Of a DNA stretch of 64,000 nt, positions 1-16,430 are shown one piece after another. Numbering within the stretch: the stretch's first letter is position 1; each line of letters begins with the position of its first letter. Source of the DNA: an uncultured Chloroflexia bacterium. GTDB taxonomy: Bacteria > Chloroflexota > Limnocylindria > QHBO01. Below the pieces are notes generated by a model that had not been told where the DNA came from, ran no database searches, and saw only the letters and a program-made list of their open reading frames with translations. The stretch spans positions 1,440,001 through 1,504,000 of the forward strand of contig CAWGTN010000002.1 of NCBI GenBank assembly GCA_963825525.1, written 5' to 3'. The position numbers were made by a program, and so were the translations under genes.

Positions 1-50
1 CGGTCGTGCTCCACGTTCCCGCCGAGGCCGCCGAGGACACCGGCGCCTGA
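1..50 (+). CDS. 3' end of an unidentified ORF entering the window
   Basis: Frame from position 3 reads VVLHVPAEAAEDTGA-stop (TGA 48-50) and is followed by a hairpin. Confidence 0.35.
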   Translation, partial: VVLHVPAEAAEDTGA

Positions 51-109: not shown

Positions 110-1115
110 CTACCTGGTGAGGCCGATGAAGTTCGTCCTCGAGTAGCAGTCGGATCGGTCCGGTTGCACGGCGGCGTGCCGTATCCGGCCGGGACCCCCG
201 GCAGCGCGTAGAACTCCACGAAGTGGCCCTGGATCTTCGACGCGTGGATGTCGTACGACGTGAGCGAGAACGCGGCCAGGGTAATGACCTCGTAGTTCAG
301 GCCGGACCCTCCATGCCCGCCGGTCTGCGTCCAGACCGGGATGAGCACGGTCTCGCCGATCAGCGCATCGAGGCACGCCCGCACTTCACTCTTGTTCATG
401 TTGCCGGGCGCACCCTCCAGCCACAATGGGAACTCCATGGCGGGGTTGTCCGGGGTGCACATGCTGTTCGCAAGGGTGCCGGCGTCAGTTCGCCCCGCTC
501 CAGGTCAGGAAACCGAAGTTGCCCGGTCCATGGGTGCCCTCGGTCAGCTCGTACTCGATTCCAGCCTGGTAGTCGGAATCGAACGTGGTGATCGGGAGGA
601 GGATCCCGGACGGGGCTTCATTGAGGATGCCGGAGGTCATCGCCGTCGCGTCGGTCGCGACATCGACCTTCGAGATGCCGACGACCCGCATGAAGAACGT
701 GTCGGCCGGAGCTCGAGGTATCCACCCGGATCCCCTGCGCGCCGGCCGGGATCGAGCCCGCATTCGTCACCGCACCGAGGTCGATCTCGATTCCGGGGTT
801 GGCTCCCGGCTTGACGTACTCGGCCGACCAGTCGCAGCCATCGGCGGCTACGCAGCCATTGTTGACCGTGCTGGCCGCGGTCGCCGTGTAGACGTCCGCG
901 CCGGTGCGCCCGCCATCCAGGTAATGGTCCGCGATGACCTTGGTCCCTGCCATGGAGGCAAGGTCCGCGACGTTCTGCATCGAGCGCCGCTCGCGATAGC
1001 CGACACCCGTGTCGATCACGAGCCCTGCGATGAGGAGGAAAACGATCATTCCGCCGGCCACCATCACCAGGATCTGGCCGGTCTCGTCGTCTCGGTGACG
1101 AAGTCGATTCCACAT
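110..1115 (-). CDS. tadG: TadG-like minor pilin (cassette A), interrupted by about 3 frameshifts (~705, ~487, ~170)
   Basis: N-terminus MWNRLRHRDDETGQILVMVAGGMIVFLLIAGLVIDTG...QNVADLASMAG is the Tad N-terminal motif; the protein continues in other frames (TFFMRVVG...GNFGFLTW; ...DCYSRTNFIGLTR). Confidence 0.75.
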
Positions 1116-1174
1116 GGAAGTGATTCCTTTCAGGGTTGAGACCGGCCAAAGAGTCCGGAGGTTGTTGCTGTCCA

Positions 1175-1591
1175 TCAGTTGTTCACGATCGCTTCGGATC
1201 GCGCCTCGAGGTGAAGGGTGCCCACGATCTGGCCGATGATCGGCGTGATCATCGAGAGGTCGGCCTTGGCCTCGACGACCAGGATGTCGTCGACCGTGCA
1301 GCCGTAGGCACCCGCCGCGGTGCAGCTCGCGGTGACGGTTGGATTGCGCACCGCCTCGAGGAGGCTGATGACGTGCGCCTCGACCCCGGCGCGGGTCGTG
1401 TCATCGAAGGCACGCGCCTGGACCGATCCGTACCGAGCGCCTTCGCGTGCCCCCTCGGAGAGGGTGTTGTAGGTGTAGACGGCACGGCCCAGGTCGATCA
1501 GGCCGAAGATGATGAGGAAGAAGATCGGGAGAGCGAGGGCAAGCTCGACCATCGCCTGGCCGCGCCGCCCCTCCTTGCGCTTGCGAATCAT
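1175..1591 (-). CDS. tadE: TadE-family minor pilin (cassette A)
   Basis: RRGQAMVELALALP...DLGRAVYTYNTLSEGAREGARYG; start overlaps the upstream stop (TGATG). Confidence 0.88.
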   Translation of the reverse strand: MIRKRKEGRRGQAMVELALALPIFFLIIFGLIDLGRAVYTYNTLSEGAREGARYGSVQARAFDDTTRAGVEAHVISLLEAVRNPTVTASCTAAGAYGCTVDDILVVEAKADLSMITPIIGQIVGTLHLEARSEAIVNN

Positions 1592-2664
1592 CAGTTGTCC
1601 ACCGTGATCGTTGTGGTGAGGCACGGGCGCAACAGCCCCGCGGTAATGCTCTGCGAGACGACCGTGTAGTCATTGCCCGGCGGTCGCACGGGCGTGAAGT
1701 TCACGGCTGAGAAGCCCGCGCTCGACCATCTTCCCTGGGCTGCGGTGATCGGCACACCCGTGAGTACCGGGACCGTGCACTGGGCGGCCGGCGTGGCAGT
1801 CGGTGACGCGCTCGGCGACGGAGAAGGGGAGGGAGAGCCCGGGCTGGGCGTCGGCGTCGCGGTGGGCACCGGCGTCGGGCTGGGAGTCGGGCTGGGAGTC
1901 GGCGTCGACATCACCGTGCTGGAGACCAGGATCGACTGGGTCAGACACGACCCAACCGTCCCGGCCGGTACGCTCTGCCACACGATGTTCTGCCCGTTGC
2001 CACCATTCGTCGAGAGATTCGCCGCAGAGAATCCCGCGATGGTCGCCCAGACATTCTCGGCGCCGCTGATCTTGGTGGGTCCGGTCGTGAAGTTCGGGAC
2101 CGTACAACTCGACGGTGCCGGCGTTGACGTCGGCGCGGTTGTCGGAATCGGGACCGTGCCGGAACCGGTCTCGAACGAGGTGACGACCACGGCCGTCGAG
2201 GACGAGCTCAGTGTCAGGGTCCCGCCCACCAGTGAACTGATCAGCGGGGTGACGAGCGTGAACGGCGTCTTGCTGGCGACGTAATACAGGTCGCCGTCCT
2301 CGCAGTCCGCAAGCGTCTTGCCCGCACCAGTGAAGACGGTGGTGCCGGGTGCGAAGCACTTGGCAACGAAGCTCTGAAGGGTCAGGCCGTTCAGCTCGAC
2401 CTCGACCCGCGACTCGACGTTATGCGGGTCGACACAGTCAGCCGTGGTCGTTGCACACTCGGGCTCGCGCGCACCGAAGAAGGCCCCTTCCTTGACGGCA
2501 TTCTCGAGGGCCACCGAGGAGAAATAGGCCCTGCCGAGGTCCACGGTGCCGAGCACCAGGACCAGCATGACCGGGAGCAGAAGTGCGAACTCGACGAAGC
2601 TCTGGCCCCGTGCGGATCGCACCCTGGCCGTGAGCTGGGTCAGCGTCGTTCGGATCGAATTCAA
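1591..2664 (-). CDS. tadE: TadE-family minor pilin with two PASTA-like domains and a Pro/Ser/Thr linker (cassette A)
   Basis: ARGQSFVEFALLLP...DLGRAYF...NAVKEGA; two CTVP...A..W..AGF...V.QS..AG...C repeats; TTG start at 2664 is uncertain. Confidence 0.82.
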   Translation of the reverse strand: MNSIRTTLTQLTARVRSARGQSFVEFALLLPVMLVLVLGTVDLGRAYFSSVALENAVKEGAFFGAREPECATTTADCVDPHNVESRVEVELNGLTLQSFVAKCFAPGTTVFTGAGKTLADCEDGDLYYVASKTPFTLVTPLISSLVGGTLTLSSSSTAVVVTSFETGSGTVPIPTTAPTSTPAPSSCTVPNFTTGPTKISGAENVWATIAGFSAANLSTNGGNGQNIVWQSVPAGTVGSCLTQSILVSSTVMSTPTPSPTPSPTPVPTATPTPSPGSPSPSPSPSASPTATPAAQCTVPVLTGVPITAAQGRWSSAGFSAVNFTPVRPPGNDYTVVSQSITAGLLRPCLTTTITVDN

Positions 2665-2694: not shown

Positions 2695-2727
2695 AACGTA
2701 TGGGGCCGACCTTGCGGGGTGCCTTGC
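2695..2727 (-). promoter_or_regulatory. Conserved pilin-cassette promoter A
   Basis: Minus strand GCAAGGCACCCCGCAAGGT-cggcccca-TACGTT; same architecture upstream of all four cassettes. Confidence 0.75.
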
Positions 2728-2895
2728 GAAGGTCGGAACGATCGGCGTCTGCTGGCAGTACGAAGGTCCCGGCGGTCCGCACCGGACCGACCCGCATGCC
2801 ATCGGAGGCCACAACAGGCCCCGATCACGTGGTGACGCGGCGCACCGGGGCGGACGAGACGCCGGGTCGGCGGACCCGGGACTTCGGTACTGCCT

Positions 2896-2928
2896 GTAAG
2901 CAGTACGGCAAGGTCAATCCGGTAGGTT
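2896..2928 (+). promoter_or_regulatory. Conserved pilin-cassette promoter B
   Basis: GTAAGCAGTACGGCAAGGT-caatccgg-TAGGTT. Confidence 0.75.
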
Positions 2929-2959
2929 GCGAACTGAGACCCGAGATTGAGATTCCGCC

Positions 2960-3943
2960 GTGCACGCCCTACGCAACCTCGCGCGACGCAGCTCGCGCGC
3001 CCAGGCCCTTGCCGAATTCGCCCTCGTCCTGCCCATCATCATCCTGCTTCTCGCGATGGCGATCGACCTTGGCCGCGTGTTCTACGGATGGGTGTCCATC
3101 CAGAACGCGGCCCGCGTCGGCGCGTCCTACGCGGCGTCAAACGCTGATGCGTGGGAGTCGCCGGCGGACGCGACACGGCAGGCCCGCTACGCGACCCTGA
3201 TCCAGAATGACCTCCAGGCACTGAACTGCGCGCTCGGGGCCGTCCCGCCACCGGCCTTCGATGACCTCGACGCCGATGGAACCTACGACACCGGCGAACC
3301 GGTCGCCGTCGCGCTGGACTGCGAGTTCAGCCTCATCACGCCGATCGGCCAGACAATCCTCGGGCCAGTGAACCTCGGAGGGGAGGCGACGTACCCCGTT
3401 CACTACACGGTCGTCACCGCGCTTCCGTCGCCACCTCCACCGCCGCCACCACCGACGTGCACGGTTCCCGGCACCGTCGGCCAGTCCCGGAACACCGCGC
3501 GAAGCCTGTGGACCGGAGCGAGCTTCCAGTCCGGCAATTTGATCGAGACCACGAACGGCAACTTCACAGTCGCCACCCAGAGCCAGACGGCGGGGGCGTC
3601 GATCCCGTGCACGTCATCCATGACGATTTCCCCGGCGGCCGGACCGACGCCGACTCCGGCGGGATGCACCAAGCCGGTGGCCCAGTTCACCGGCACGCCG
3701 ACAGTCGGTAAGTCGACGCTGAACGTTCAGTTCACGGATCAGTCGACGAGCGCAGGTTGCCCGATCCTGTCGTGGAGCTGGAACTTCGACCCAGGGTCCT
3801 CCAGCCTTCAGAGCCCGAGCCACGGGTTCGTCTGGGACGGCAATGGACAGTCGACGAAATTCAAGGTCACCCTCACCGTCACGAACGCCGCCGGGTCTGA
3901 TGTGGAAACAAAGAACAACTACATCCAGGCAAACAAGCCATGA
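2960..3943 (+). CDS. tadE: TadE-family minor pilin with PASTA-like and PKD domains (cassette B)
   Basis: SRAQALAEFALVLP...NAARVGA; poly-Pro linker; CTVPGTVG...QSQTAG; PKD signature PVAQFT...VQFTDQS...WSWNFD...VTLTVTNAAG. Confidence 0.87.
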   Translation: MHALRNLARRSSRAQALAEFALVLPIIILLLAMAIDLGRVFYGWVSIQNAARVGASYAASNADAWESPADATRQARYATLIQNDLQALNCALGAVPPPAFDDLDADGTYDTGEPVAVALDCEFSLITPIGQTILGPVNLGGEATYPVHYTVVTALPSPPPPPPPPTCTVPGTVGQSRNTARSLWTGASFQSGNLIETTNGNFTVATQSQTAGASIPCTSSMTISPAAGPTPTPAGCTKPVAQFTGTPTVGKSTLNVQFTDQSTSAGCPILSWSWNFDPGSSSLQSPSHGFVWDGNGQSTKFKVTLTVTNAAGSDVETKNNYIQANKP

Positions 3944-4386
3944 CGCTGATGCGCGGCCGTGATCGCGGTCAGACGATGGTCGAGCTGGCCCTCGTGCTGC
4001 CGCTCCTCATCCTGCTCATCGCCGGGATCTTCGACTTCGGCCGTGCGATTTACGGCTACAACACCGTCATCAATGCGTCGCGCGAGGCCGCACGCGTGGC
4101 CATCGTTCACCAGACGGCCGGCACCATCGAGCAGCGGGCAGTGGACCACGCCGTAGCCCTCGGACTCAGCGCGACCGATGTCTCCATCGACTACCGCACC
4201 GCCGCCGCTCCGGAAACACCGGGCTCATGCGACTCGAGGCTCGGAACCCCCCAGATCGTGGGATGCACCGCCGTTGTTCGTGTCGACTACACCTATGAAG
4301 CCTCGATTCCGATCATCACCGCCCTGGTCGGGTCGATCGACCTGGCCGGCGAAACACGATTCCCCGTGGAGCACAACGCTCCATGA
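3940..4386 (+). CDS. tadE: TadE-family minor pilin (cassette B)
   Basis: DRGQTMVELALVLP...DFGRAIYGYNTVINASREAAR. Confidence 0.88.
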   Translation: MTLMRGRDRGQTMVELALVLPLLILLIAGIFDFGRAIYGYNTVINASREAARVAIVHQTAGTIEQRAVDHAVALGLSATDVSIDYRTAAAPETPGSCDSRLGTPQIVGCTAVVRVDYTYEASIPIITALVGSIDLAGETRFPVEHNAP

Positions 4387-5585
4387 CACCCAGGAGACTG
4401 AACCCGATGGACCGATACTTCCGCTCAGGCACCGGCTCGCGATCGCGTGAGGGGCAGGTGCTCGTCATCGTGGCCGCGGGCATGTTCGTGCTCATCGCCA
4501 TGGTCGGGCTGATCATCGACGGCGGCAATGCCCTGGCTCAGCAGCGCCGCGCGCAGAACGCGGCCGATGGGATTGCCATGGCTGGCACCGCGGTCATCCA
4601 GGACTACCTCAGCGACGCGGCAACGCCGCCGACTGCGGGCGACGTGGGGTGCGCCGTTGAGACCGCAGCAGACGCACACGAGATCGACCTCGAGAAGGCC
4701 GAGTTCACGGACTTCAACGGCACCATCGTCGGCCTCGTGCCCGCGTGCGGGTCCGGTGCGGGGATTCCGGCGGGGAGCCAGGGCGTCAAGGGCTCGAGCA
4801 CCGAGGACTTCGAGACGTTCCTCATGCGTGCGGTCGGTTTCGGCACCATGACGACGAAGGCGAATGCCACCGCTGTTGTGGGAACACCGTCCGGCGTGTG
4901 CCCGGCCAGTGCCGGGTGCGGCGTGCTCCCGGTCACCTTCCCGCGCACGATCGACACCTGCGACGGGACGAACACCGGGATCGTCGGCGAGGACGAGTGG
5001 GAGATACTGGACGAGGACGCGGTGCTGGATAGCAGCAATCTCGCCATCGTTCCGCTCTGCAAGAAGGCACCGGGCGCCACCGGCTGGCTGGACTTCGGAT
5101 GCGGCAACCTCGCAGACCACATCACGAACCCGTGCAACCAGTACATCAACATCCCGGCATGGCTTCACACCAGCCCGGGCAACCCGAACTGCTGCGAGAA
5201 CCAGCTGAATGCGTACGCGGGCTCGTCGCCCGGCGTTGCCGAAACGGCCGACCAGGTCCTCTACGTCCCGATCCACGACAACACGTGCGGCACCAAGCCG
5301 GCGGACTCCGACCCCGTCTGCCCGGGCGGCAATTGGACCGGTGGAGGTGACCTCCTCCATTACCACATCCCGTATTGGGTCGGATTCAAGCTCGATGGCG
5401 CATTCACCCAGGGGAGTGACGTCGAGTGCAACGAACTCCCGGGCACGCCGTTTTCGGGTGGCAACGGGGCCACCGGCTGCCTGAAGGGATGGTTCGTCTC
5501 GAAGGTCACCGCCCCCGGACCAATCAGTACCGTGGTGATCAACCCCGGAGATCCGGTGGCCCTGGCCATCGCCCTGATCGACTAG
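4383..5585 (+). CDS. tadG: TadG-like minor pilin with Cys-rich C-terminal domain (cassette B)
   Basis: REGQVLVIVAAGMFVLIAMVGLIIDGG...QRRAQNAADGIAMAG; start may be ATG 4407. Confidence 0.85.
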   Translation: MTPRRLNPMDRYFRSGTGSRSREGQVLVIVAAGMFVLIAMVGLIIDGGNALAQQRRAQNAADGIAMAGTAVIQDYLSDAATPPTAGDVGCAVETAADAHEIDLEKAEFTDFNGTIVGLVPACGSGAGIPAGSQGVKGSSTEDFETFLMRAVGFGTMTTKANATAVVGTPSGVCPASAGCGVLPVTFPRTIDTCDGTNTGIVGEDEWEILDEDAVLDSSNLAIVPLCKKAPGATGWLDFGCGNLADHITNPCNQYINIPAWLHTSPGNPNCCENQLNAYAGSSPGVAETADQVLYVPIHDNTCGTKPADSDPVCPGGNWTGGGDLLHYHIPYWVGFKLDGAFTQGSDVECNELPGTPFSGGNGATGCLKGWFVSKVTAPGPISTVVINPGDPVALAIALID

Positions 5586-5845
5586 CCGCGCCGGGCCGGG
5601 CCAAAATCCGCCCGGCCACTCGGCAGCCCAGTCTCTCCGTGCGCCGCGCAACCCATTTTGGGTGGCGCGGCGTTCTGGCGTCCCGCGGCGATTCGCCACC
5701 GCTAACCCTGCGAGACACCTCAGATCGCCAGGTCCCCTAACAAGATTCAGTGTTGTGCGTTGTCGCAGAGCGTGTACTGTCACAACGGATACCGCCGAAC
5801 TTCGTTAGGGTCCGTGTTGCCACAATGCACCGAGATTCGTGGTTT

Positions 5846-5878
5846 GCAAGGTCAGCTGCAAGGTTGAATGCCTACATT
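5846..5878 (+). promoter_or_regulatory. Conserved pilin-cassette promoter C
   Basis: GCAAGGTCAGCTGCAAGGT-tgaatgcc-TACATT, 8 nt before ATG 5887 (near-leaderless). Confidence 0.75.
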
Positions 5879-5886
5879 CGCGAGCG

Positions 5887-6774
5887 ATGACACGAGAATC
5901 TGAACCCGGCGCGACATCGGCCGCCCGCCGCGGCCAGGCCCTGGTCGAGCTTGCCCTGATCGCCCCTGTCCTGCTGCTCCTGCTCATCGGAGCGATTGAC
6001 CTGGGCCGCGTCTGGCAGTCACAGATCACCATCAACAATGCCGCCCGCGAAGGCGCGATGGAAGGGATCTTCCAGCCGAACTCATTCATCGCCGGTACGG
6101 CGTGCACCTCGGCCAACCAGGACTCGAACCGGATCATGTGCCGGGTCGTGAACGAGGTACGCGACTCGAGCATCACCGTGACCCCGGCAGACGTGGCGAA
6201 GTCCTGCAGCCCGTCGTGCACGCCGGGCAGCGTGGGCGCCCCGAGCACGTTGACGGTGACCGTTACGGGCCACTTCTCCCTGCTCACGCCGCTCATGGCC
6301 GTCTTCACCGGTGGCCAGGACATCACCCTCACGGCGGCCGCAGACGCGACGATTGCCATGACCCCGACCGGCGGCCCGGTCGCGACCCCCAGCCCGAGTC
6401 CGAGTCCGACGCCGACGCCGACGCCGACGCCGACTCCGACAGGCAGCCCGGGCCCGTCACCGACGCCAACCGCAACGGCAAGCCCAACGCCCCCACCGCA
6501 ACCGTGTGTGGCCCCGGTTGCGAATTTCAGCGTCAGTCCGGCCACGGGCAAGAAGAAGAAGACCGACTTCGCATTCACCGATTCTTCGACGAACATGGCG
6601 AACCCGGCCTGCAACCGGATCTGGTCGTGGAACTTCGGCGACGGAACCGGTGCTTCCTCGTCGCAGAACACCGTCCATCAGTACGACTCGGCGGGCACCT
6701 ACACGATCACCCTGTCGGTATCCAACAGCGCCGGCACCTCGACGTTCCAGCGGTCGGTCATTGTCACGCAGTAA
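5887..6774 (+). CDS. tadE: TadE-family minor pilin with PKD domain (cassette C)
   Basis: RRGQALVELALIAP...NAAREGA; PT/PS linker; PKD motif WSWNFGDG...H.Y..AGTYTITLSVSN. Confidence 0.87.
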   Translation: MTRESEPGATSAARRGQALVELALIAPVLLLLLIGAIDLGRVWQSQITINNAAREGAMEGIFQPNSFIAGTACTSANQDSNRIMCRVVNEVRDSSITVTPADVAKSCSPSCTPGSVGAPSTLTVTVTGHFSLLTPLMAVFTGGQDITLTAAADATIAMTPTGGPVATPSPSPSPTPTPTPTPTPTGSPGPSPTPTATASPTPPPQPCVAPVANFSVSPATGKKKKTDFAFTDSSTNMANPACNRIWSWNFGDGTGASSSQNTVHQYDSAGTYTITLSVSNSAGTSTFQRSVIVTQ

Positions 6775-6778
6775 GTCG

Positions 6779-7210
6779 TTGCGCGCCAAGCCAGCGCACA
6801 GCGAGAAGGGCCAGGCGATGGTCGAGTTCGCCCTCACGGTCGTCATCTTCATCGGCCTCCTGCTGGGCGTGCTCGATTTCGGCCGAGCGATCTTCATGTC
6901 GAACGGCGTCGCCGAGGCGGCGCGCGAGATCGCCCGCGTTGCGAGCGTGCATCCGGGGAACCCGATCTCGAACCCATCAGCCGATACCCAGCAGGTGATC
7001 GCGGGGCAGCGCAGCATCATCTTCGATCTCGCGAACCCGACGATGACGTGCGTCGACATCACCGGCCAGCCAGCTGCCACCCCGACCGGTGCCTGCCTTC
7101 CCGGCAATTGGGTGAAGGTCGAGATCCACGCTCCCTACAGCCCGGTGACACCAATCTTCAACCTGATGGCCATCGACCTCGAGTCGACCAGCAGCGTGCA
7201 AATACCGTGA
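6779..7210 (+). CDS. tadE: TadE-family minor pilin (cassette C)
   Basis: EKGQAMVEFALTVVIF...DFGRAIFMSNGVAEAAREIAR; TTG start is inferred. Confidence 0.85.
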   Translation: MRAKPAHSEKGQAMVEFALTVVIFIGLLLGVLDFGRAIFMSNGVAEAAREIARVASVHPGNPISNPSADTQQVIAGQRSIIFDLANPTMTCVDITGQPAATPTGACLPGNWVKVEIHAPYSPVTPIFNLMAIDLESTSSVQIP

Positions 7211-7230
7211 AGTCAGAGGTACGCCCAGCC

Positions 7231-8170
7231 ATGCATCCCGAATTTGCCGATGGAGACCGAGAGCGCGGGCAGATCCTCGTCATCTTTGCTCTCGCGCTCG
7301 TCGCGATCGTCGCCATGGTGGGCCTGGTGATCGACGGCGGTTCGGCCTTCGCCCAGCGCCGTTCACAGCAGAACGGTTCGGACCTTGCGGCCATGGCCGG
7401 CGCGAACACCTACCTGCTTACGAACAGCAACGCGTCGACGATCAGTGCGGCCCGAGAGGTTGCCCGCCAGAACGGGTGGGAGCACGGCGTCGGCGGTGTC
7501 GTCGTCAATGTGAGCATCGACACGTCCAACGGGGCGGCCGTCACGGTCGAGGTCGACGCCCCACACGACAACTACTTCGGCGGCATCGTCGGGTTCGACA
7601 CGATGGATGTTGGCACCACTGCCACCGCGGTTGGTGGTTTCCCCGATACCGTGGAGGGCGCGGCGCCGATGATCTTCAGCATCGACGCATTCAACGCCGA
7701 TGGTTCGCCGAAAGCAGCCTACGGGAACTCCGGCGCCCCATTTGCGTTCGGCGAGACGAACGGAGACGTGCCCACAGGACCTGGTGATCTTGCGTGGACG
7801 AACTACGGGACCGGCAATGTCAATACGAACGACGTCCGACAGATCATCCGAGGCAACCTCGTCATCAATAAGACGCTCGACATTCGGTGAGTACATCGGT
7901 CAGCACAACAACGGCAATCACACCGCGCTGTTCGGCGAGGTGAACTCCTACCTGGCGGGCATGGACGTCCCGGTCCCCGTCGTTGATCACAACGGCAATT
8001 TCCAGGGGTGGGCTACGTTCCACATCGTCTCGGCGTCGGGTGGCAGCGCGAAGGATGTCGTCGGGTATTTCAAGAGCTCGTTCGTGAGCCAGCGGCTGTC
8101 GATCGGCGGCTGCGCGGCAAATGACTGCCCGCGCTACCTGGGTTCGTACGTCCTCAAGCTCACCGACTGA
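7231..8170 (+). CDS. tadG: TadG-like minor pilin (cassette C), frameshift near 7882
   Basis: ERGQILVIFALALVAIVAMVGLVIDGG...QNGSDLAAMAG; C-terminus FGEYIGQHNNG...GSYVLKLTD lies in another frame. Confidence 0.8.
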
Positions 8171-8197
8171 CGCCAAGGGAACAGTCCCGACAACGCC

Positions 8198-8225
8198 AAA
8201 GCCGGTCGAGGAATCGACCGGCTTT
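8198..8225 (+). terminator. Rho-independent terminator after cassette C
   Basis: AAAGCCGGTCGA-ggaa-TCGACCGGCTTT. Confidence 0.75.
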
Positions 8226-8432
8226 CGCTTGCGTCCGTCTTGCTCAGGGAGCACGCAAGCCAACGCACGCCGCACCAGGTTTGTTACTGGCAGCGACGTG
8301 CGCCACAAGTACTGCGACGGACCCCACGCGACCCGACCGCCGCGCCACAGACCCCACGCGTCGCGAGCTCGTTTGGCCGTCGATTTTCCTATCGCTTGCT
8401 CGGTACAGGCTGCCTACGGTGCACCTCAGATG

Positions 8433-8465
8433 GCAAGCAAGACCGCAAGGTGGCGGGCATAGCCT
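8433..8465 (+). promoter_or_regulatory. Conserved pilin-cassette promoter D
   Basis: GCAAGCAAGACCGCAAGGT-ggcgggca-TAGCCT; AGGAG RBS downstream before GTG 8495. Confidence 0.75.
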
Positions 8466-8494: not shown

Positions 8495-9118
8495 GTGCAG
8501 ACGATCGTTCGATTTCGGAGCCAGCGAACCCGGGACGGTGTCCGGTCCGAGCGTGGACAGTCCGCCGTCGAGTTCATCCTGGTCTTCCCGATCTTCATCC
8601 TGATCATCATCGGCCTCATGGAGTTCAGCCTGGCGTTCAACGCGCTCATCGGCGTGAACTTCGCCAGCCGCGACGCGGCACTCCTGGCCGCCGAGGCCGC
8701 CGCCGACGCGGGCGCCGATTGCGTGATCCTGAAGAGCGTGGAGTCGGACATCAACGCGCCGGCCGACCGCGACCGAATCACCGAGGTCCGCGTCTACTGG
8801 GCCACCGACACCGGGGCCATGATGCCCGGCAACCCGGTCAACGTGTACCGCCGGACGGGCAGCACCACCTGCACGACGCCCGGCGGATCGATCATCACGG
8901 TTCCGTACTCCCTGGTCGGTGTGGCCGGCTACCCGGTGAGCATCCGCTGCGACGTCATCGGCGGCTGCGGCGGCTCCCATGACACGGTCGACACGATTGC
9001 CGTCCAGGTCCGGTACACCCACGTCTGGGCCACGCCGCTGGCCCGGCTCGTGTCGCTGGGCGGCACAGGGTTCTCGTTCGAGCACACCAACGCCATGCGC
9101 ATGGAGCCATCGCTGTGA
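8495..9118 (+). CDS. tadE: TadE-family minor pilin (cassette D)
   Basis: ERGQSAVEFILVFP...ASRDAA; C-terminal MRMEP. Confidence 0.86.
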   Translation: MQTIVRFRSQRTRDGVRSERGQSAVEFILVFPIFILIIIGLMEFSLAFNALIGVNFASRDAALLAAEAAADAGADCVILKSVESDINAPADRDRITEVRVYWATDTGAMMPGNPVNVYRRTGSTTCTTPGGSIITVPYSLVGVAGYPVSIRCDVIGGCGGSHDTVDTIAVQVRYTHVWATPLARLVSLGGTGFSFEHTNAMRMEPSL

Positions 9119-9705
9119 GAGCCCTTCTCGCGCACCGCTACCGGCGCGACGCTCGCGGCCAGTCGCTGGTCGAGATGATCCTCATCCTCCCCGTGCTGCT
9201 CATGCTCACCATGGGCACGCTCGAGTTCGGCTTCGCGTTCGATCATCACATCACCCTCGAGTACGCGAGCCGCGAGGGCGCCCGCACCGGAGCTGCCCTC
9301 TCGAACGGTGCCGGCGACGCAACCCGCTGCGCAGCCATCGATCCGCAGATCATTGCTGCGGTCCAGCGCGTCCTCGACAGCCCGAGCTCATCGGTCGACC
9401 TGGCGGAGGTCCCCGAGGTTCGGATCTTCCGTGCCGGAACCAACGGGCAGGAGCTGGGACCCGTGAACCGATGGCGGTACGCCCCCGGCGCCGGCCCGAC
9501 CGTTGACGGGCAGCGACTCGACTTCGTCGAGGTCTCTGCCAGCTGGCCGGCGTGCTCGCGCCTCAGCCAGCCCAACCCGGATTCGATCGGGGTCAGCCTG
9601 ACCTACACCTACCGCTTCCAGACGCCGATGACCGGCCTGCTCGGAATGGCATCTATCAACATGGGCGACAAGACGGTCATGCCGCTCGCGCCCACGGACT
9701 ATTGA
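9115..9705 (+). CDS. tadE: TadE-family minor pilin (cassette D)
   Basis: ARGQSLVEMILILP...EFGFAF...YASREGARTG. Confidence 0.88.
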   Translation: MRALLAHRYRRDARGQSLVEMILILPVLLMLTMGTLEFGFAFDHHITLEYASREGARTGAALSNGAGDATRCAAIDPQIIAAVQRVLDSPSSSVDLAEVPEVRIFRAGTNGQELGPVNRWRYAPGAGPTVDGQRLDFVEVSASWPACSRLSQPNPDSIGVSLTYTYRFQTPMTGLLGMASINMGDKTVMPLAPTDY

Positions 9706-9715
9706 GGTCCCGCAC

Positions 9716-11869
9716 ATGACCCCGTCCGCCATCGCGCGCTTCATCCGCCGTCGTCAGCCACCGGTTGTCGAGGGAGGTGCTGAGCGCGCGAGCCGCGGCC
9801 AGATCCTGGTCCTGTTCGCGCTCCTGCTCACCATCCTCATCGGCTTCTCGGCCTTCGTGGTCGACATTGCCTGGATCTGGAGCAACCAGCTCAAGGTCCA
9901 GCGTGCGGCGGACGCAGCGGCACTTGCCGGCGTGGTCAACCTTCCCGGCCAGGTCACGGTGGCATTCAACGACGCGTGGGCCGAGTCGCGAAAGAACGGA
10001 TATCGCAATGGCGTGGGCGGGGTGGTCGTGACCCCGTCGCAGGATCCCGACAACCCTCGGCGCATGCGCGTTCGCGTGTCCGCGCCGGTGAGGACGTTCT
10101 TCATGGGCCTGTTCGGCTGGAGCCAGGTGACCGTCACCCGCGACGCAAGCGCCGACTTCGTGCTCCCGGTGCCGATGGGCAGCCCGCTGAACTACTACGG
10201 CGTCGGCGACTTCCGCACCCTCGTCACCGGATCAGTGACCGATACCGGCGAGCGGGCGGCCACGACGGCGGTCACCCCGAACGGTTGGACGACACCGAAC
10301 GGCGCGCATGCGTCCGGGGGGAGCACCCACGCCAACAACGCGACGGGCGCCAGCCAGGGATACGGGAACTTCGGCATCACGCTGCCCGCCGGCTCCGTGG
10401 TCCGAGGCATCGAGGTGCGGGTCGATGGCCGCTCGACCGACACGGCCGGATGCGCCATCGGCGTTTCGCTATCGGCCAATGGTGGGACGAGCTGGACCGC
10501 TCAGAAGACCCAGAGCCTGACGGGCGCGTTCGCCGTGAGGCGTCTTGGGGGCGCCACCGACATGTGGGGCGGTGTCTGGCTGCCGGCAGGAGTCACGAAC
10601 GGCTCGCTGGTGGTCCGCGTGACCGACGTCGATCCTGGGGCCGCCTGTGTCGACAGCGCTCGCACCGACCTTGATTACCTGAGCGTGAAGGTCTTCTACA
10701 CGGGTCCGCCCACCCAGCAGAACCGGGTGATCACCGCGCCGGACGGCACGGTGCTCGCGAGCCAGGGCTTCTGGGGTGCGATCGAGGGCCAGGGCAGCAA
10801 CCGATCGACCGGCGATGCCTACGCCACCGGCTACAACCCGAATCCCACCTTGAACGCCGACTACGACGCGCGAGGGTACGACTACACCCTGGAGCTGCCG
10901 GCAGGCGGCAAGGTGTCCATCTTCGACCCCACCTTCTGCGCGACGTCCGACGGACCGGGCGGCGGCCACTACGGGTCCGGCGACCACTGGCTGGGCGCAG
11001 CGACGCCCGTGTCCACCTACTTCCAGCTGTGGAACTCGAACGGCACCACGTTCCGGAGCGATGACACGCTGGTGGCCGCGAGTGGCTCCCTGTTCCAGAA
11101 CGAGTACCAGGCCGACCTCATCACCGGCGCGAACTTCAGCGACGGTGCAGAGCCGACGAACCCGACGGACTGCGGCGAGGGCCTGATCACGAACCCGGGC
11201 CAGGGCGGCGCGTACCACAACAAGTGGTGGCAGATGGCCAGCGGACTGGCCGCCGGCGAGTATCGGCTCCAGGTGACGACCACCAATCCCAGTAATCCGA
11301 ACGACAACTGGGACGAGAGCTTCGAGAACATGTGGTCGATCCTGGTCGAGGGCGGCGGCAAGCCGCACATCTTCGGCTCCGGGAAGATGGTGTCCTACGC
11401 CAACATCGAGGCCGGACAGCAGACGTTCTATCTCGCCCAGATCGACCGACAGGCGGGAGCCGGCAAGACGGTCGAGATCAAGCTCTTCGATCCGGGCGAC
11501 GTCGGTCAGAAGGCGTGGATGCAGATCCTTTCGCCGGACGGCAACGCGTACAACCCGGTGACGTTCAGCTACACCGCAGATAACGGGCGATCCGGCACCA
11601 ACGTCACGTGCATCCAGACGTATGGCGGTGGCGGGCCGTCGGCGCCATCCGGCTGCACCAACCTCACGAGCGGTGGATCCCTCTACCAGAACTCGTGGAT
11701 CACGGTCCAGGTGCCACTCTCGTCGAACTACGGGGCGAGCGGCCTCCAGCCGGCGGGCGAGACCGAATCCGGCTGGTGGAAGATCCGGTACACCGTGAAC
11801 AGTGGCAACGACACCACGACCTGGGAGGTCACGATCCGCGGCAACCCGGTCCGCCTGGTCGTTCCCTGA
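9716..11869 (+). CDS. tadG: Large TadG-like minor pilin / putative tip adhesin, 717 aa (cassette D)
   Basis: SRGQILVLFALLLTILIGFSAFVVD...QRAADAAALAG followed by about 550 aa of Gly/Thr/Trp-rich extracellular-type sequence. Confidence 0.85.
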   Translation: MTPSAIARFIRRRQPPVVEGGAERASRGQILVLFALLLTILIGFSAFVVDIAWIWSNQLKVQRAADAAALAGVVNLPGQVTVAFNDAWAESRKNGYRNGVGGVVVTPSQDPDNPRRMRVRVSAPVRTFFMGLFGWSQVTVTRDASADFVLPVPMGSPLNYYGVGDFRTLVTGSVTDTGERAATTAVTPNGWTTPNGAHASGGSTHANNATGASQGYGNFGITLPAGSVVRGIEVRVDGRSTDTAGCAIGVSLSANGGTSWTAQKTQSLTGAFAVRRLGGATDMWGGVWLPAGVTNGSLVVRVTDVDPGAACVDSARTDLDYLSVKVFYTGPPTQQNRVITAPDGTVLASQGFWGAIEGQGSNRSTGDAYATGYNPNPTLNADYDARGYDYTLELPAGGKVSIFDPTFCATSDGPGGGHYGSGDHWLGAATPVSTYFQLWNSNGTTFRSDDTLVAASGSLFQNEYQADLITGANFSDGAEPTNPTDCGEGLITNPGQGGAYHNKWWQMASGLAAGEYRLQVTTTNPSNPNDNWDESFENMWSILVEGGGKPHIFGSGKMVSYANIEAGQQTFYLAQIDRQAGAGKTVEIKLFDPGDVGQKAWMQILSPDGNAYNPVTFSYTADNGRSGTNVTCIQTYGGGGPSAPSGCTNLTSGGSLYQNSWITVQVPLSSNYGASGLQPAGETESGWWKIRYTVNSGNDTTTWEVTIRGNPVRLVVP

Positions 11870-11909: not shown

Positions 11910-12305
11910 GTGAACGAGCAGGCACGCCTGGTACGCGTCGAGAACGTCACCCGTGGCACGACCGTCGCCGACCGTGTGCGGGTCGCCTCGTCGAGTGTCG
12001 ATCGGACCGTTGGGCTGCTACACACTCCGGGCCTCGCGCCGGACGAGGGACTGTGGATCGAGCGAGCCCCGTCCATCCACATGTTCTTCATGCGCTACGC
12101 GATCGACGCGATCTTCGTCGACCGCGCTGGCCGGGTGACCAAGGTCGTGCCGAATCTCCGGCCCTGGAGGGTCGTGCTCTGGGCGCGGGGCGCCCGGGAT
12201 TGCCTGGAGCTCGGCGCCGGCGCCGCGGCCGTCAGCGGGACGGAGCGCGGAGACCAGCTGACCCTGGTGGACGTGGACCGGGACATGGACGAGGGCTCCC
12301 GGTAA
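11910..12305 (+). CDS. DUF192 family protein
   Basis: VA.S..DRTVGLL...SIHMFFMRYAIDAIFVD...LEL pattern. Confidence 0.8.
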   Translation: MNEQARLVRVENVTRGTTVADRVRVASSSVDRTVGLLHTPGLAPDEGLWIERAPSIHMFFMRYAIDAIFVDRAGRVTKVVPNLRPWRVVLWARGARDCLELGAGAAAVSGTERGDQLTLVDVDRDMDEGSR

Positions 12306-12350
12306 GCAAGCGGTAATCCCGCGGTACACGCGCCTGGGTCAGCATTCGGC

Positions 12351-13004
12351 ATGGAGTGGCTGCTGGACGTGCTGATGCCGCCGGCGTGCACGGGTTGCGG
12401 ACGTGCCGGCTCGATCATGTGCCAACGCTGCCGCGCGGACATGCGGCCGTTCACGGACCATGCCCCGACCTTCGTGGCGCCGGACGCCGGCGTCGTGGTG
12501 GGTGAGGCGCTGGCGCTGGCCGTCGCGGCGTTCCCGTACGAGGGAGCGCTCCGCCGCGTGCTGGCAGCGCTGAAGTATCGGGGCGCCGCCCGCGTTGCGC
12601 GGCCGCTTGCCGATGCGGCCTTTCCCTCCCTCCGCCATCTCCTCGCGGTCTCCGGGCCCGCCGTGCTCGTGCCGGTGCCCATTCACCCAGGCCGGCAACG
12701 CCAACGCGGTTACAACCAGGCGTCGCTCATCGCCACGCGCCTCGCGGCCCGCGCCGAGATTCCGATGGCCGACCTGCTGACGCGGGCGCACCTCACCGAG
12801 CAGCAGCACCGCCTGACGCGCGCGGAACGAATGAGGAACATGCGTGGCGCCATCACTCCCCGGAAGGGAGCATCGGCTCCGGCCTGCGCGGTCGTGGTCG
12901 ACGACATCCTGACGACCTCGGCCACGCTCGAGGTCTGCGCCGATGCACTCCTCCGCATGGGCGTCCAGCACGTCTACGGGTTCGCCATAGCCCGCGAAGT
13001 CTGA
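12351..13004 (+). CDS. comF: ComF family protein (Zn ribbon + phosphoribosyltransferase-like)
   Basis: PPACTGC...CQRC; VPVP...RQRGYNQA; VVDDILTTSATL. Confidence 0.9.
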   Translation: MEWLLDVLMPPACTGCGRAGSIMCQRCRADMRPFTDHAPTFVAPDAGVVVGEALALAVAAFPYEGALRRVLAALKYRGAARVARPLADAAFPSLRHLLAVSGPAVLVPVPIHPGRQRQRGYNQASLIATRLAARAEIPMADLLTRAHLTEQQHRLTRAERMRNMRGAITPRKGASAPACAVVVDDILTTSATLEVCADALLRMGVQHVYGFAIAREV

Positions 13005-13059
13005 CCTGGTGCTAGCCTAGGAGGCCACCTCGAGACACGCGCAGCGGAGGATTCGGTAC

Positions 13060-13644
13060 GTGAAGACGAACCTGACCGCCCGGAACCTGGAGCTGGATGA
13101 TGAGCTCCGCAGCCAGGTCGAGCGTAAGCTCAAGCGCCTCGACAGGATCACCCACGAGTCCGCGGAGGCCGATGTCGAGCTCATCGCCAACGCCTCACAC
13201 GCCAACGACGCATCCCAGGTCGCCGAGGTGACGCTGCGCAACAACGGAGACCTCCTGCGCTCGACGGCCGCCGGCGCGTCCCCCATCGCCGCCCTCGACG
13301 TGGTGCTGGACAAGCTCGAGCGGCAGGTCGTGCGCATGAAGGAGCGGCCGCGGCGCGTCCGGGAGCGTCATGCCGACGAGGTGGACACTGTCCTCGAGCG
13401 CGAGGCGATCGGCACCGTCGACGGAGACGACGGCGCAGGCGATCGTCCGCTCATCGTGAAGACCAAACGGTTCGCCATGCGGCCGATGTTCGAAGAGGAT
13501 GCCATGGCTCAGATGGAGGAGCTCGGCCACGCTTTCTTCGTCTTCCTGAACGCCGAGAGCGAGAGCGTGGCCGTCCTCTATCGGCGTCGGGATGGATCGT
13601 TCGGGCTCATCGAGCCGGTACTGGATAACGGGAGACCGCGCTGA
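13060..13644 (+). CDS. hpf: Ribosome hibernation promoting factor, long HPF/RaiA
   Basis: ARNLELDDELRSQVERKL...DKLERQV; C-terminal PMFEEDAMAQMEELGHAFFVF...YRRRDGSFGLIEP. Confidence 0.9.
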   Translation: MKTNLTARNLELDDELRSQVERKLKRLDRITHESAEADVELIANASHANDASQVAEVTLRNNGDLLRSTAAGASPIAALDVVLDKLERQVVRMKERPRRVRERHADEVDTVLEREAIGTVDGDDGAGDRPLIVKTKRFAMRPMFEEDAMAQMEELGHAFFVFLNAESESVAVLYRRRDGSFGLIEPVLDNGRPR

Positions 13645-16022: not shown

Positions 16023-16430
16023 TTAGCTGCCGTTCGTGTACCCGTTCGGGCCGTGATGTGAGCCGTTCGAGTCGCCTCGCGATCGGCGCAGTCGAAGGGC
16101 GATGTACGCCTGCATGAGCTCGCGGACATCGGATTCGGTCAGGGCGTCATCGCCGCGCAGGGCGTATTCGACGCGGGTGGTGGGCAGGACGTGGCGATTG
16201 TTGAGCGAGGCGAAGTAGGCCGGTCCATCGGCCTCCTCGCGGATCTCGCGCAGTCCGCGGGCGAGCTTGGTGGCGGTCCCGAGCGACGGCATGCGATCGC
16301 CCTTGATCAGCCGCGAGATGGTGGAGTGATCCACGCCCGACTGGAGCGCCAGCTGCCGCTGGCTCATCTTCTTTTCCTTCAGCTGGCCGCGAAGCCAGCT
16401 GTTGAACGATCGTGGTGTCTCGAGGGCCAT
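16023..16430 (-). CDS. XRE-family HTH transcriptional regulator
   Basis: KMSQRQLALQSGVDHSTISRLIKGDRMPSLGTATKLARGL. Confidence 0.87.
   Translation of the reverse strand: MALETPRSFNSWLRGQLKEKKMSQRQLALQSGVDHSTISRLIKGDRMPSLGTATKLARGLREIREEADGPAYFASLNNRHVLPTTRVEYALRGDDALTESDVRELMQAYIALRLRRSRGDSNGSHHGPNGYTNGS

Follow-up and report, generated by a model that had tools for sequence, protein, structure and literature searches.

Operators of the OmpR/PhoB (pho-box) type consist of tandem direct repeats of a 7-bp word, set at a fixed distance from a -10 element in promoters without a -35 sequence, and OmpR/PhoB dimers usually occupy repeats with a period of 10-11 bp. An element of related design occurs four times in a 64,000-nucleotide stretch of DNA from an uncultured Chloroflexia bacterium of the Limnocylindria (positions 1,440,001 to 1,504,000 of contig CAWGTN010000002.1, here C2; the whole stretch is called the window), each time upstream of a three-gene cassette for minor pilins of a Tad pilus. 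The element is a direct repeat, GYAAGGT-N5-GCAAGGT, that has a 12-bp period and ends 8 nt before a -10 hexamer of the form TANNNT. Like pho-box type operators, it repeats a 7-bp word whose distance from the -10 element is fixed, in a promoter without a -35 sequence, and a REC + Trans_reg_C regulator and a HisKA kinase are encoded alongside; unlike them, it has a period of 12 rather than 10-11 bp, with a gap of 8 nt to the -10 element. Judged from its sequence, it is a strongly conserved promoter element of the OmpR/PhoB or SARP-like architectural class. With moderate confidence we infer that the response regulator encoded directly after tadC binds this element, at about -39 to -21, and activates the housekeeping-sigma promoters of five interchangeable minor-pilin cassettes.

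The boxes of Streptomyces antibiotic regulatory proteins (SARPs), such as the afs box of AfsR and those of the ActII-ORF4/DnrI type, are also comparable. As described in the portion of PMC10936776 drawn on here, these boxes are heptameric direct repeats whose 3' repeat lies 8 bp from the -10 element, with a centre near -29.5, and they are bound by winged-helix activators. The present element likewise comprises heptamer repeats 8 bp away from the -10 hexamer and has its centre near -30, over the spacer and the -35 region; the OmpR-type winged helix of the SARP binder is found in the regulator here as well. Unlike the SARP boxes in that portion, it has a period of 12 rather than 11 or 22 bp, the regulator linked to it has a receiver domain and no BTAD domain, and its targets are pilus genes rather than antibiotic clusters.

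TcrA of Actinoplanes missouriensis, an orphan response regulator, has pili in its regulon. Its box, given in the available extract of PMC12691653 as 5'-nnGCA(A/C)CCG-n4-GCA(A/C)CCGn-3', is also a direct repeat of a GCA-initial heptamer upstream of start sites, and activates a developmental or surface regulon; it differs from the element here in its 11-bp period, its word and its phylum. In Pectobacterium, an OmpR-type two-component system encoded beside the flp/tad cluster activates that cluster; the measured targets are flp, rcpA, rcpB and tadA, and no operator is defined in the excerpted text (PMC3767616). Here too a two-component system lies next to tad genes, but the box is found only at minor-pilin cassettes, and flp and the machinery operon are without it. 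The Kil pilus of Myxococcus xanthus has interchangeable TadE/TadF/TadG-like 'Tip' clusters (PMC12075869, in the part available). Common to both systems are several paralogous three-gene minor-pilin clusters per Tad machine and a large TadG-like protein, with variable C-terminal domains in Kil; the present genome departs from Kil in that its clusters number five (with six TadE loci), that four of these form a single array next to the machinery, and that they have an operator in common. By analogy, the five TadE-TadE-TadG cassettes are probably alternative pilus tip or priming complexes, a tip function being assigned here only by likeness to Kil. Nothing was found in open-access texts on the motif, on direct repeats at tadE promoters together with a response regulator, or on pili of Limnocylindria.

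Across the genome studied (G000; 2.58 Mb in 4 contigs, 68.7% G+C), the exact pattern occurs five times, every time before a TadE cassette: the four sites in the window, boxes A to D, and a fifth on the same contig, box E (Table 1). The window holds four matches even when up to two mismatches are allowed, and 0.01 match is expected from 100 dinucleotide-preserving shuffles (largest shuffle count, 1). A position weight matrix (PWM) built from the five sites scores them at 35.7-39.2, which is high by construction; the informative part is the gap below them, the next best place in the genome reaching 20.6. A half-site at C2:459727 (GCAAGGT-N8-TACGTT, without the first repeat; PWM score 19.9) was treated as chance, the sole long open frame found there lying on the opposite strand.

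The letters, coordinates and strands that the initial annotation quoted for boxes A to D all agree with direct reading of the sequence, and most of its description stands. The 12-bp period, the GCAAGGT word and the 8 nt to TANNNT hold in these four sites and in the fifth; each site faces the first TadE gene of a three-gene cassette, as identified by Pfam; and the bases between the conserved words do diverge, identity in the alignment of the five promoters being confined to the two repeats and TANNNT. Likewise, the stated absence of TTGACA is borne out, in that hexamers 16-18 nt from the -10 element match it at no more than 3 of 6 positions in the five promoters. The first repeat, described as GYAAG, is present but was drawn too short: in relatives it normally reads GYAAGGT, so the repeated unit is a heptamer or longer.

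When 73 sites from this genome and its relatives are aligned, positions that had been free in the search pattern are kept (position 6 is G in 70/73, position 7 is T in 49/73 and position 11 is a pyrimidine in 70/73), and consequently the repeated unit approximates yTGCAAGGT; the 30 nt on each side of the element hold about 0 bits of information. An A is enriched 7 nt after the -10 element (29/73 sites), and if this A is taken as +1, the first repeat (R1) spans -39 to -33, the second (R2) -27 to -21, and the -10 element -12 to -7. The spacing is rigid. In a search of 61 genomes of the genus that left the repeat gap free between 4 and 8 and the gap to the -10 element free between 6 and 10, 78 matches were obtained in 41 genomes; 77 of them have exactly N6/N8 (the 12-bp period) and one has N9, and the reversed pattern used as a control gave 1 match.

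Conservation extends through the genus and beyond. The exact pattern of the initial annotation is present in 26 of 36 other genomes of the genus and in 1 of 24 more distant ones, with 1 control match overall. A slightly relaxed exact pattern was then applied to the class (301 genomes at least 85% complete; G000 left out of the family counts). Matches were found in 63 of 78 genomes of its own family (f1), compared with 19/165, 1/38, 0/18 and 0/1 in the other families f3, f2, f4 and f5, respectively, and there were 4 control matches in the 301 genomes. Along with the five genome sites and the drop in PWM score below them, the f1 count speaks in favour of the element on the two doubts raised at the outset, that the motif might occur at background frequency or be lacking in orthologous upstream regions. 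Counts in this work include genomes flagged as unpublished (G006, G034, G083, G146 and G206; also sites L011 and L019), and no conclusion hangs on these alone.

The gene for the proposed binder belongs to the core tad locus, which lies just upstream of the window and begins with a HisKA_3 kinase, a NarL-type regulator, flp, a cpaB-like gene and tadZ (a receiver and a ParA-like part), then continues with tadA, tadB, tadC, the REC + Trans_reg_C response regulator and a histidine kinase. Among solved proteins, those closest to the regulator in sequence are RegX3, MtrA, KdpE and M. tuberculosis PhoP, with E values from 1e-39 to 1e-36. No NCBIfam equivalog model reaches its cut-off, and by this measure the protein is an unnamed lineage of the OmpR/PhoB family. 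Its link to the box is seen in two relatives in which the genes are intact: G017 has the order tadC, response regulator (237 aa), histidine kinase (447 aa, with HisKA, HATPase_c and a weak GAF match), box and TadE, and the second tad locus of G009 (L067) has the same order. A regulator orthologue is present in 19 of the 36 other genus genomes (at least 72% identity; 66% for one partial sequence), and in 12 of the 17 that hold both regulator and box, the regulator gene is followed by a box at most 6 kb downstream, on its own contig and strand; in three of the twelve, the nearest such box carries one mismatch.

More distant families provide a further comparison. In three f3 genomes of one genus, the order is a regulator homologue (45-47% identical), about 240 nt, a box variant (GTAATGG-N5-GCAAGGA-N8-TACCCT), TadE and TadG; the locus lies beside pdxS/pdxT (pdxST-regulator-box-TadE), and no tad machinery was found in the stretches read. 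Family f2 has 4-15 Pfam TadE matches per genome (five genomes) and lacks a regulator orthologue (best E 1e-30 to 1e-42), and the box is essentially absent from it. In G039 of this family, a different OmpR-family response regulator and histidine kinase occupy the same place before a TadE-TadE-TadG cassette, and the intergenic region holds a different box, GTTCAG-N5-GTTCAG, with an 11-bp period and 10 nt before TAGGGT (L063 5957-6095, minus strand); G041 (L058), also of f2, has a box like it before a cassette. The hexamer that follows this f2 box after 10 nt has the form TAGNNT. When the regulators are aligned, the segment corresponding to the DNA-reading helix hardly differs between f1 (SYLWVTVRRLRRK) and f3 (AYVWVTVRRLRQK), whereas the f2 protein is different there (SNVTEVLVARLRHK). 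The recognition-helix region and the box thus appear to change together across f1/f3 versus f2.

Taken together, the five genome sites, all before TadE cassettes, and their conservation in relatives support the dedicated regulon that the initial annotation had proposed. Of the two kinds of factor it envisaged, a direct-repeat-binding protein covering about -39 to -21 fits the rigid spacing, the position-specific conservation and the presence of an OmpR/PhoB-type regulator beside boxes in three families. Its candidate for that protein, the XRE regulator encoded at 16023-16430, is not upheld: this is only an HTH_3 protein, it lies 7.5 kb away and has no link to the boxes, and a far better candidate adjoins the cassettes. 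Nor were the matches that it expected at flp, the tad machinery and competence genes obtained, since in this genome the box stands only before TadE cassettes.

These comparisons suggest a mechanism. The element would be the operator of the two-component system of the pilus locus, presenting yTGCAAGGT twice, 12 bp from start to start, in place of a -35 element. The GAF-like/HisKA kinase would be the cognate kinase of the regulator, which, once phosphorylated, would bind head to tail as a dimer and recruit or adapt the RNA polymerase holoenzyme at promoters lacking a usable -35 sequence. The five paralogous TadE-TadE-TadG cassettes would consequently be switched on together, and in relatives the regulator would do the same for a small hairpin RNA and a membrane-anchored protein of 160 aa.

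These additional targets emerged from 74 sites, comprising 70 of the 78 matches of the spacing search, boxes B and D of the window, and one site each from G008 and G042. The 900 nt downstream of each site were typed with two custom hidden Markov models, one for TadE, made from nine TadE N-termini of the genome studied, and one for the 160-aa protein (P160), made from eight of these proteins of relatives, whose rows match by construction. The box precedes a TadE-family gene at 50 of the 74 sites and P160, the second commonest target, at 15 (L005, L006, L008, L014, L015, L017, L021, L025, L027, L029 and five more). P160 has an N-terminal membrane segment and matches no family in Pfam or NCBIfam; the query used did not detect it in G000. 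Neither target follows the box at the other 9 sites, of which seven have a hairpin; the contig ends 88 nt from one more, and the last is unexplained. The hairpin, found in relatives (L007, L020, L024, L030, L031, L148 and L177), begins about 10-15 nt after the predicted start and consists of a perfect stem of 15-17 bp, GCCGACCGCA...TGCGGTCGGC, of which both arms are altered in L024, and a G-rich loop, GGGGGA.CAA. It matches no Rfam family, and it was not found in G000 by stem/loop pattern; this long, conserved hairpin looks like a small RNA. In G042, which belongs to another genus, in f3, an exact box and two degenerate copies precede tandem copies of a cassette like D.

Transcription would begin about 7 nt after the -10 element, at the enriched A. 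Among 65 classified sites, the first start codon follows the -10 element within 12 nt at 11 (at 6-8 nt in six of these, cassette C included), at 13-45 nt at 32, and at more than 45 nt at 22, the last group including E-type cassettes with a leader of about 200 nt. The position of the A and the short start-codon distances fit leaderless mRNAs that begin there, and the mRNA of cassette C, whose ATG lies 8 nt after the -10 element, is probably leaderless. At box D, an AGGAG lies downstream of the element, ahead of the GTG start at 8495. The E-type cassette has a 5' leader of about 215 nt (C2:490248-490463; L026 1534-1749) that is highly conserved in 10 genomes, with invariant blocks such as GGTACTAAGGTACCGCCTC and a predicted hairpin that encloses the TadE start codon. 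This leader, which matches no Rfam family and for which RNAalifold finds compensatory changes in just 4 of 35 pairs, is possibly a cis-regulatory RNA.

Several observations weigh against assigning the element to this regulator as its activator. First, the reading frames of the regulator and kinase are broken in the G000 assembly, where tblastn reveals three frameshift places. Public DNA contigs have one base fewer at L002 12479 (in all of the covering depth) and likewise at 13362/13363 and 13902/13906, and these missing bases coincide exactly with the three frameshift places, so the breaks are read as assembly indels; these contigs are 90-99% alike and not necessarily of the same strain. Second, the co-occurrence of box and regulator is imperfect: of the 36 genus genomes, all incomplete assemblies of the metagenome-assembled-genome type (56-96% complete), 17 have both, 9 the box without the regulator, 2 the regulator without the box, and 8 neither. 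Of four box-only genomes checked, three (G016, G024 and G029) also gave no tadA with the query used, and the remaining one, G018, has contig ends that interrupt its tad locus; given the incompleteness of the assemblies, the missing regulator in such genomes may be an assembly effect. In G035, which is 94% complete, neither tadA nor a regulator orthologue was found, yet a one-mismatch box is present where a contig ends. Third, the comparison of helix and box covers three lineages only. Fourth, the 12-bp period exceeds the 10-11 bp usual for OmpR/PhoB dimers. It is likewise not the 11 or 22 bp given for SARP boxes (PMC10936776, in the part cited). Finally, a repressor could make equal use of a site at -39 to -21.

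That last alternative, in which the same regulator or another factor occupies -39 to -21, blocks RNA polymerase and allows expression on leaving, is unlikely but fares best among the rivals. The site does overlap the region that polymerase must contact, and the sequence does not tell whether the regulation is positive or negative. However, the five promoters have no -35-like hexamer at 16-18 nt (at most 3 of 6 positions), so their unaided activity should be poor. In addition, the fixed 8-nt gap to the -10 element (77/78) suits activators that contact sigma or polymerase, whereas repressors tolerate variable positions, and the Pectobacterium and SARP precedents, as far as the cited portions go, are activators.

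Activation by a different protein has also been considered. The genome encodes one protein that combines Trans_reg_C and BTAD domains, among seven Trans_reg_C proteins, in a 1148-aa frame at C2:~1390.4-1391.1 kb, about 50 kb from the cassettes. That this SARP-like protein binds the box in the manner of a SARP would account for the geometry, i.e., direct repeats of a heptamer, the 3' one 8 nt away from the -10 element (PMC10936776, same portion), but it is quite unlikely. Its domain order is atypical, with the DNA-binding part C-terminal, and the period is 12 rather than 11 or 22 bp. Among the 36 genus genomes, 12 have both protein and box, 14 only the box, 3 only the protein and 7 neither; the protein never adjoins a box in the loci read, and its sequence changes quickly, with 43-64% identity across the genus, against an almost unvarying box.

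The tad neighbourhood of G000 also includes the response regulator of the NarL/LuxR type with its HisKA_3 kinase, whose genes lie just upstream of flp (L002 3433-5419). Regulators with a GerE-type helix-turn-helix usually bind inverted repeats, however, and the present element is a direct repeat; furthermore, the gene directly before the box in the f3 loci, in G017 and in G009 encodes an OmpR-type response regulator or its kinase rather than a NarL-type protein. Binding of the boxes by this pair is thus very unlikely.

The second kind of factor in the initial annotation, an alternative sigma factor of, for example, the extracytoplasmic function (ECF) type whose promoter the motif would be, is not supported and is held to be highly improbable. 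The lack of a canonical -35 sequence is in its favour, as is the supply of candidates, with 23 sigma-70 region 2 matches above the Pfam cut-off in the genome (24 in all). Spacers for the sigma-70 family range from about 15 to 19. Here, the conserved word is duplicated, and neither of its distances from the hexamer, 8 nt for R2 and 20 nt for R1, is such a spacer. The downstream hexamer is of the ordinary TANNNT type, no sigma gene is present in the locus (the nearest Sigma70_r2 match, at C2:1513707, is about 65 kb from the boxes), and the gene linked to the boxes in relatives encodes a response regulator, not a sigma factor. That the motif is a functionless remnant of cassette duplication deserves almost no credence: the cassettes are indeed paralogues, but 16-18 positions are fixed in 73 sites from dozens of species while flanks and spacers carry no information, and in relatives the same box precedes unrelated genes (P160 and the hairpin RNA).

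The element, the cassettes and the proposed two-component system are collected in Table 1.

Table 1. Positions of the boxes, the minor-pilin cassettes and the two-component system. Positions are those of the window unless marked C2.
Feature	Position	Strand	Description
Response regulator (proposed binder)	C2:1437853-1438567		Directly after tadC, just upstream of the window; Pfam Response_reg and Trans_reg_C
Histidine kinase	~C2:1438600-1440026; last codons at window 1-26	+	Between regulator and cassettes; HisKA and HATPase_c
Box A	2695-2727	-	R1 2727-2721; R2 GCAAGGT 2715-2709; 8-nt gap; -10 TACGTT 2700-2695; before cassette A
Box B	2896-2928	+	R1 GTAAGCA 2896-2902; R2 GCAAGGT 2908-2914; -10 TAGGTT 2923-2928; before cassette B
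Box C	5846-5878	+	R1 GCAAGGT 5846-5852; R2 GCAAGGT 5858-5864; -10 TACATT 5873-5878; before cassette C
Box D	8433-8465	+	R1 GCAAGCA 8433-8439; R2 GCAAGGT 8445-8451; -10 TAGCCT 8460-8465; before cassette D
Box E (fifth box)	C2:490215-490247	+	Exact pattern match; upstream of the fifth TadE-TadE-TadG cassette
Cassette A gene 1	1591-2664	-	Minor pilin of the TadE family, 357 aa; starts with TTG, 30 nt past the -10; Pfam TadE 5.6e-13
Cassette A gene 2	1175-1624	-	TadE-family, 149 aa; Pfam TadE 6.3e-18
Cassette A gene 3	618-1175	-	TadG-like, 185 aa; Pfam Tad PF13400 7.2e-10
Cassette B gene 1	2960-3943	+	TadE with C-terminal PKD domain, 327 aa; Pfam
Cassette B gene 2	3940-4386	+	TadE, 148 aa; Pfam
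Cassette B gene 3	4383-5585	+	TadG-like, 400 aa; Pfam
Cassette C gene 1	5887-6774	+	TadE with PKD domain, 295 aa; Pfam
Cassette C gene 2	~6761-7210	+	TadE; start TTG 6761 or 6779; Pfam
Cassette C gene 3	~7207-7890	+	TadG-like; start GTG 7207 or ATG 7231; Pfam
Cassette D gene 1	8495-9118	+	TadE, 207 aa; Pfam
Cassette D gene 2	9115-9705	+	TadE, 196 aa; Pfam
Cassette D gene 3	9716-11869	+	Large TadG-like, 717 aa; Pfam

All 15 genes of the five cassettes match Pfam above the cut-off (TadE PF07811 or Tad PF13400), and each cassette is a three-gene set; the fifth, after box E, encodes TadE proteins of 210 and 243 aa and a TadG-like protein of 542 aa. The term "pilin cassettes" used in the initial annotation is therefore right in so far as the products are TadE, TadE and TadG-like minor pilins, and wrong if it is taken to include the Flp major pilin, whose gene, upstream of the window, is without the box. 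A sixth TadE/TadG locus, at C2:~173.5-174.3 kb, is also without it. The third gene of cassette A may have been shortened by an assembly indel. A TadG-like protein of a relative (L064 4718-7384) has VWA domains; these, and the PKD domains of the first proteins of cassettes B and C, fit exposed, variable adhesive modules carried on minor pilins.

Boxes A and B are divergent and lie in a common intergenic region of 296 bp. A short inverted repeat, GTACTGC ... GCAGTAC (window 2887-2907), straddles R1 of box B, and a word resembling it, CGTACTGCC, is found on the opposite strand upstream of box A; these words may be chance or a second site in the common control region of A and B. After cassette D, on the same strand (window 11910-13644), there are a DUF192 gene, a comFC-like gene (double zinc ribbon and phosphoribosyltransferase) and hpf. 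As well as the regulator and kinase genes, single-base frameshifts split cpaB, tadZ and, elsewhere, polA (L002 6275-8465, 11853-14030; L003 65-1583). A 645-aa open reading frame on the minus strand after the regulator was rejected as a gene, since it is a shadow of the frameshifted kinase gene.

A response-regulator box that defines a small regulon is an ordinary kind of finding; mildly unusual here are the period of 12 bp and, for a regulator with a receiver domain, the SARP-like register. A bolder proposal, which we offer tentatively and regard as possible rather than probable, is that a receiver and winged-helix response regulator at a SARP-like position (box near -30, 8 nt from the -10 element, 12-bp period) represents a 'sigma adaptation' geometry not described for OmpR/PhoB proteins. 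One sensor kinase would in that case deploy interchangeable Tad tips, together with a small RNA and a protein that is secreted or membrane-bound, throughout an uncultivated soil family of Chloroflexota, and the cassettes would be ranked in affinity by their upstream repeats, which read GYAAGCA at B and D and GYAAGGT/C at A, C and E. The same gene order, combined with a 12-bp box in two families and a different 11-bp box in a third, forms a natural series for investigating how winged helices read the spacing of repeats. For a widespread uncultivated soil lineage, the analysis provides a precise, testable operator and a named candidate regulator of Tad pilus genes. The minor-pilin 'tip' cassettes of this lineage would be regulated as a unit, apart from the major pilin and the assembly machine.

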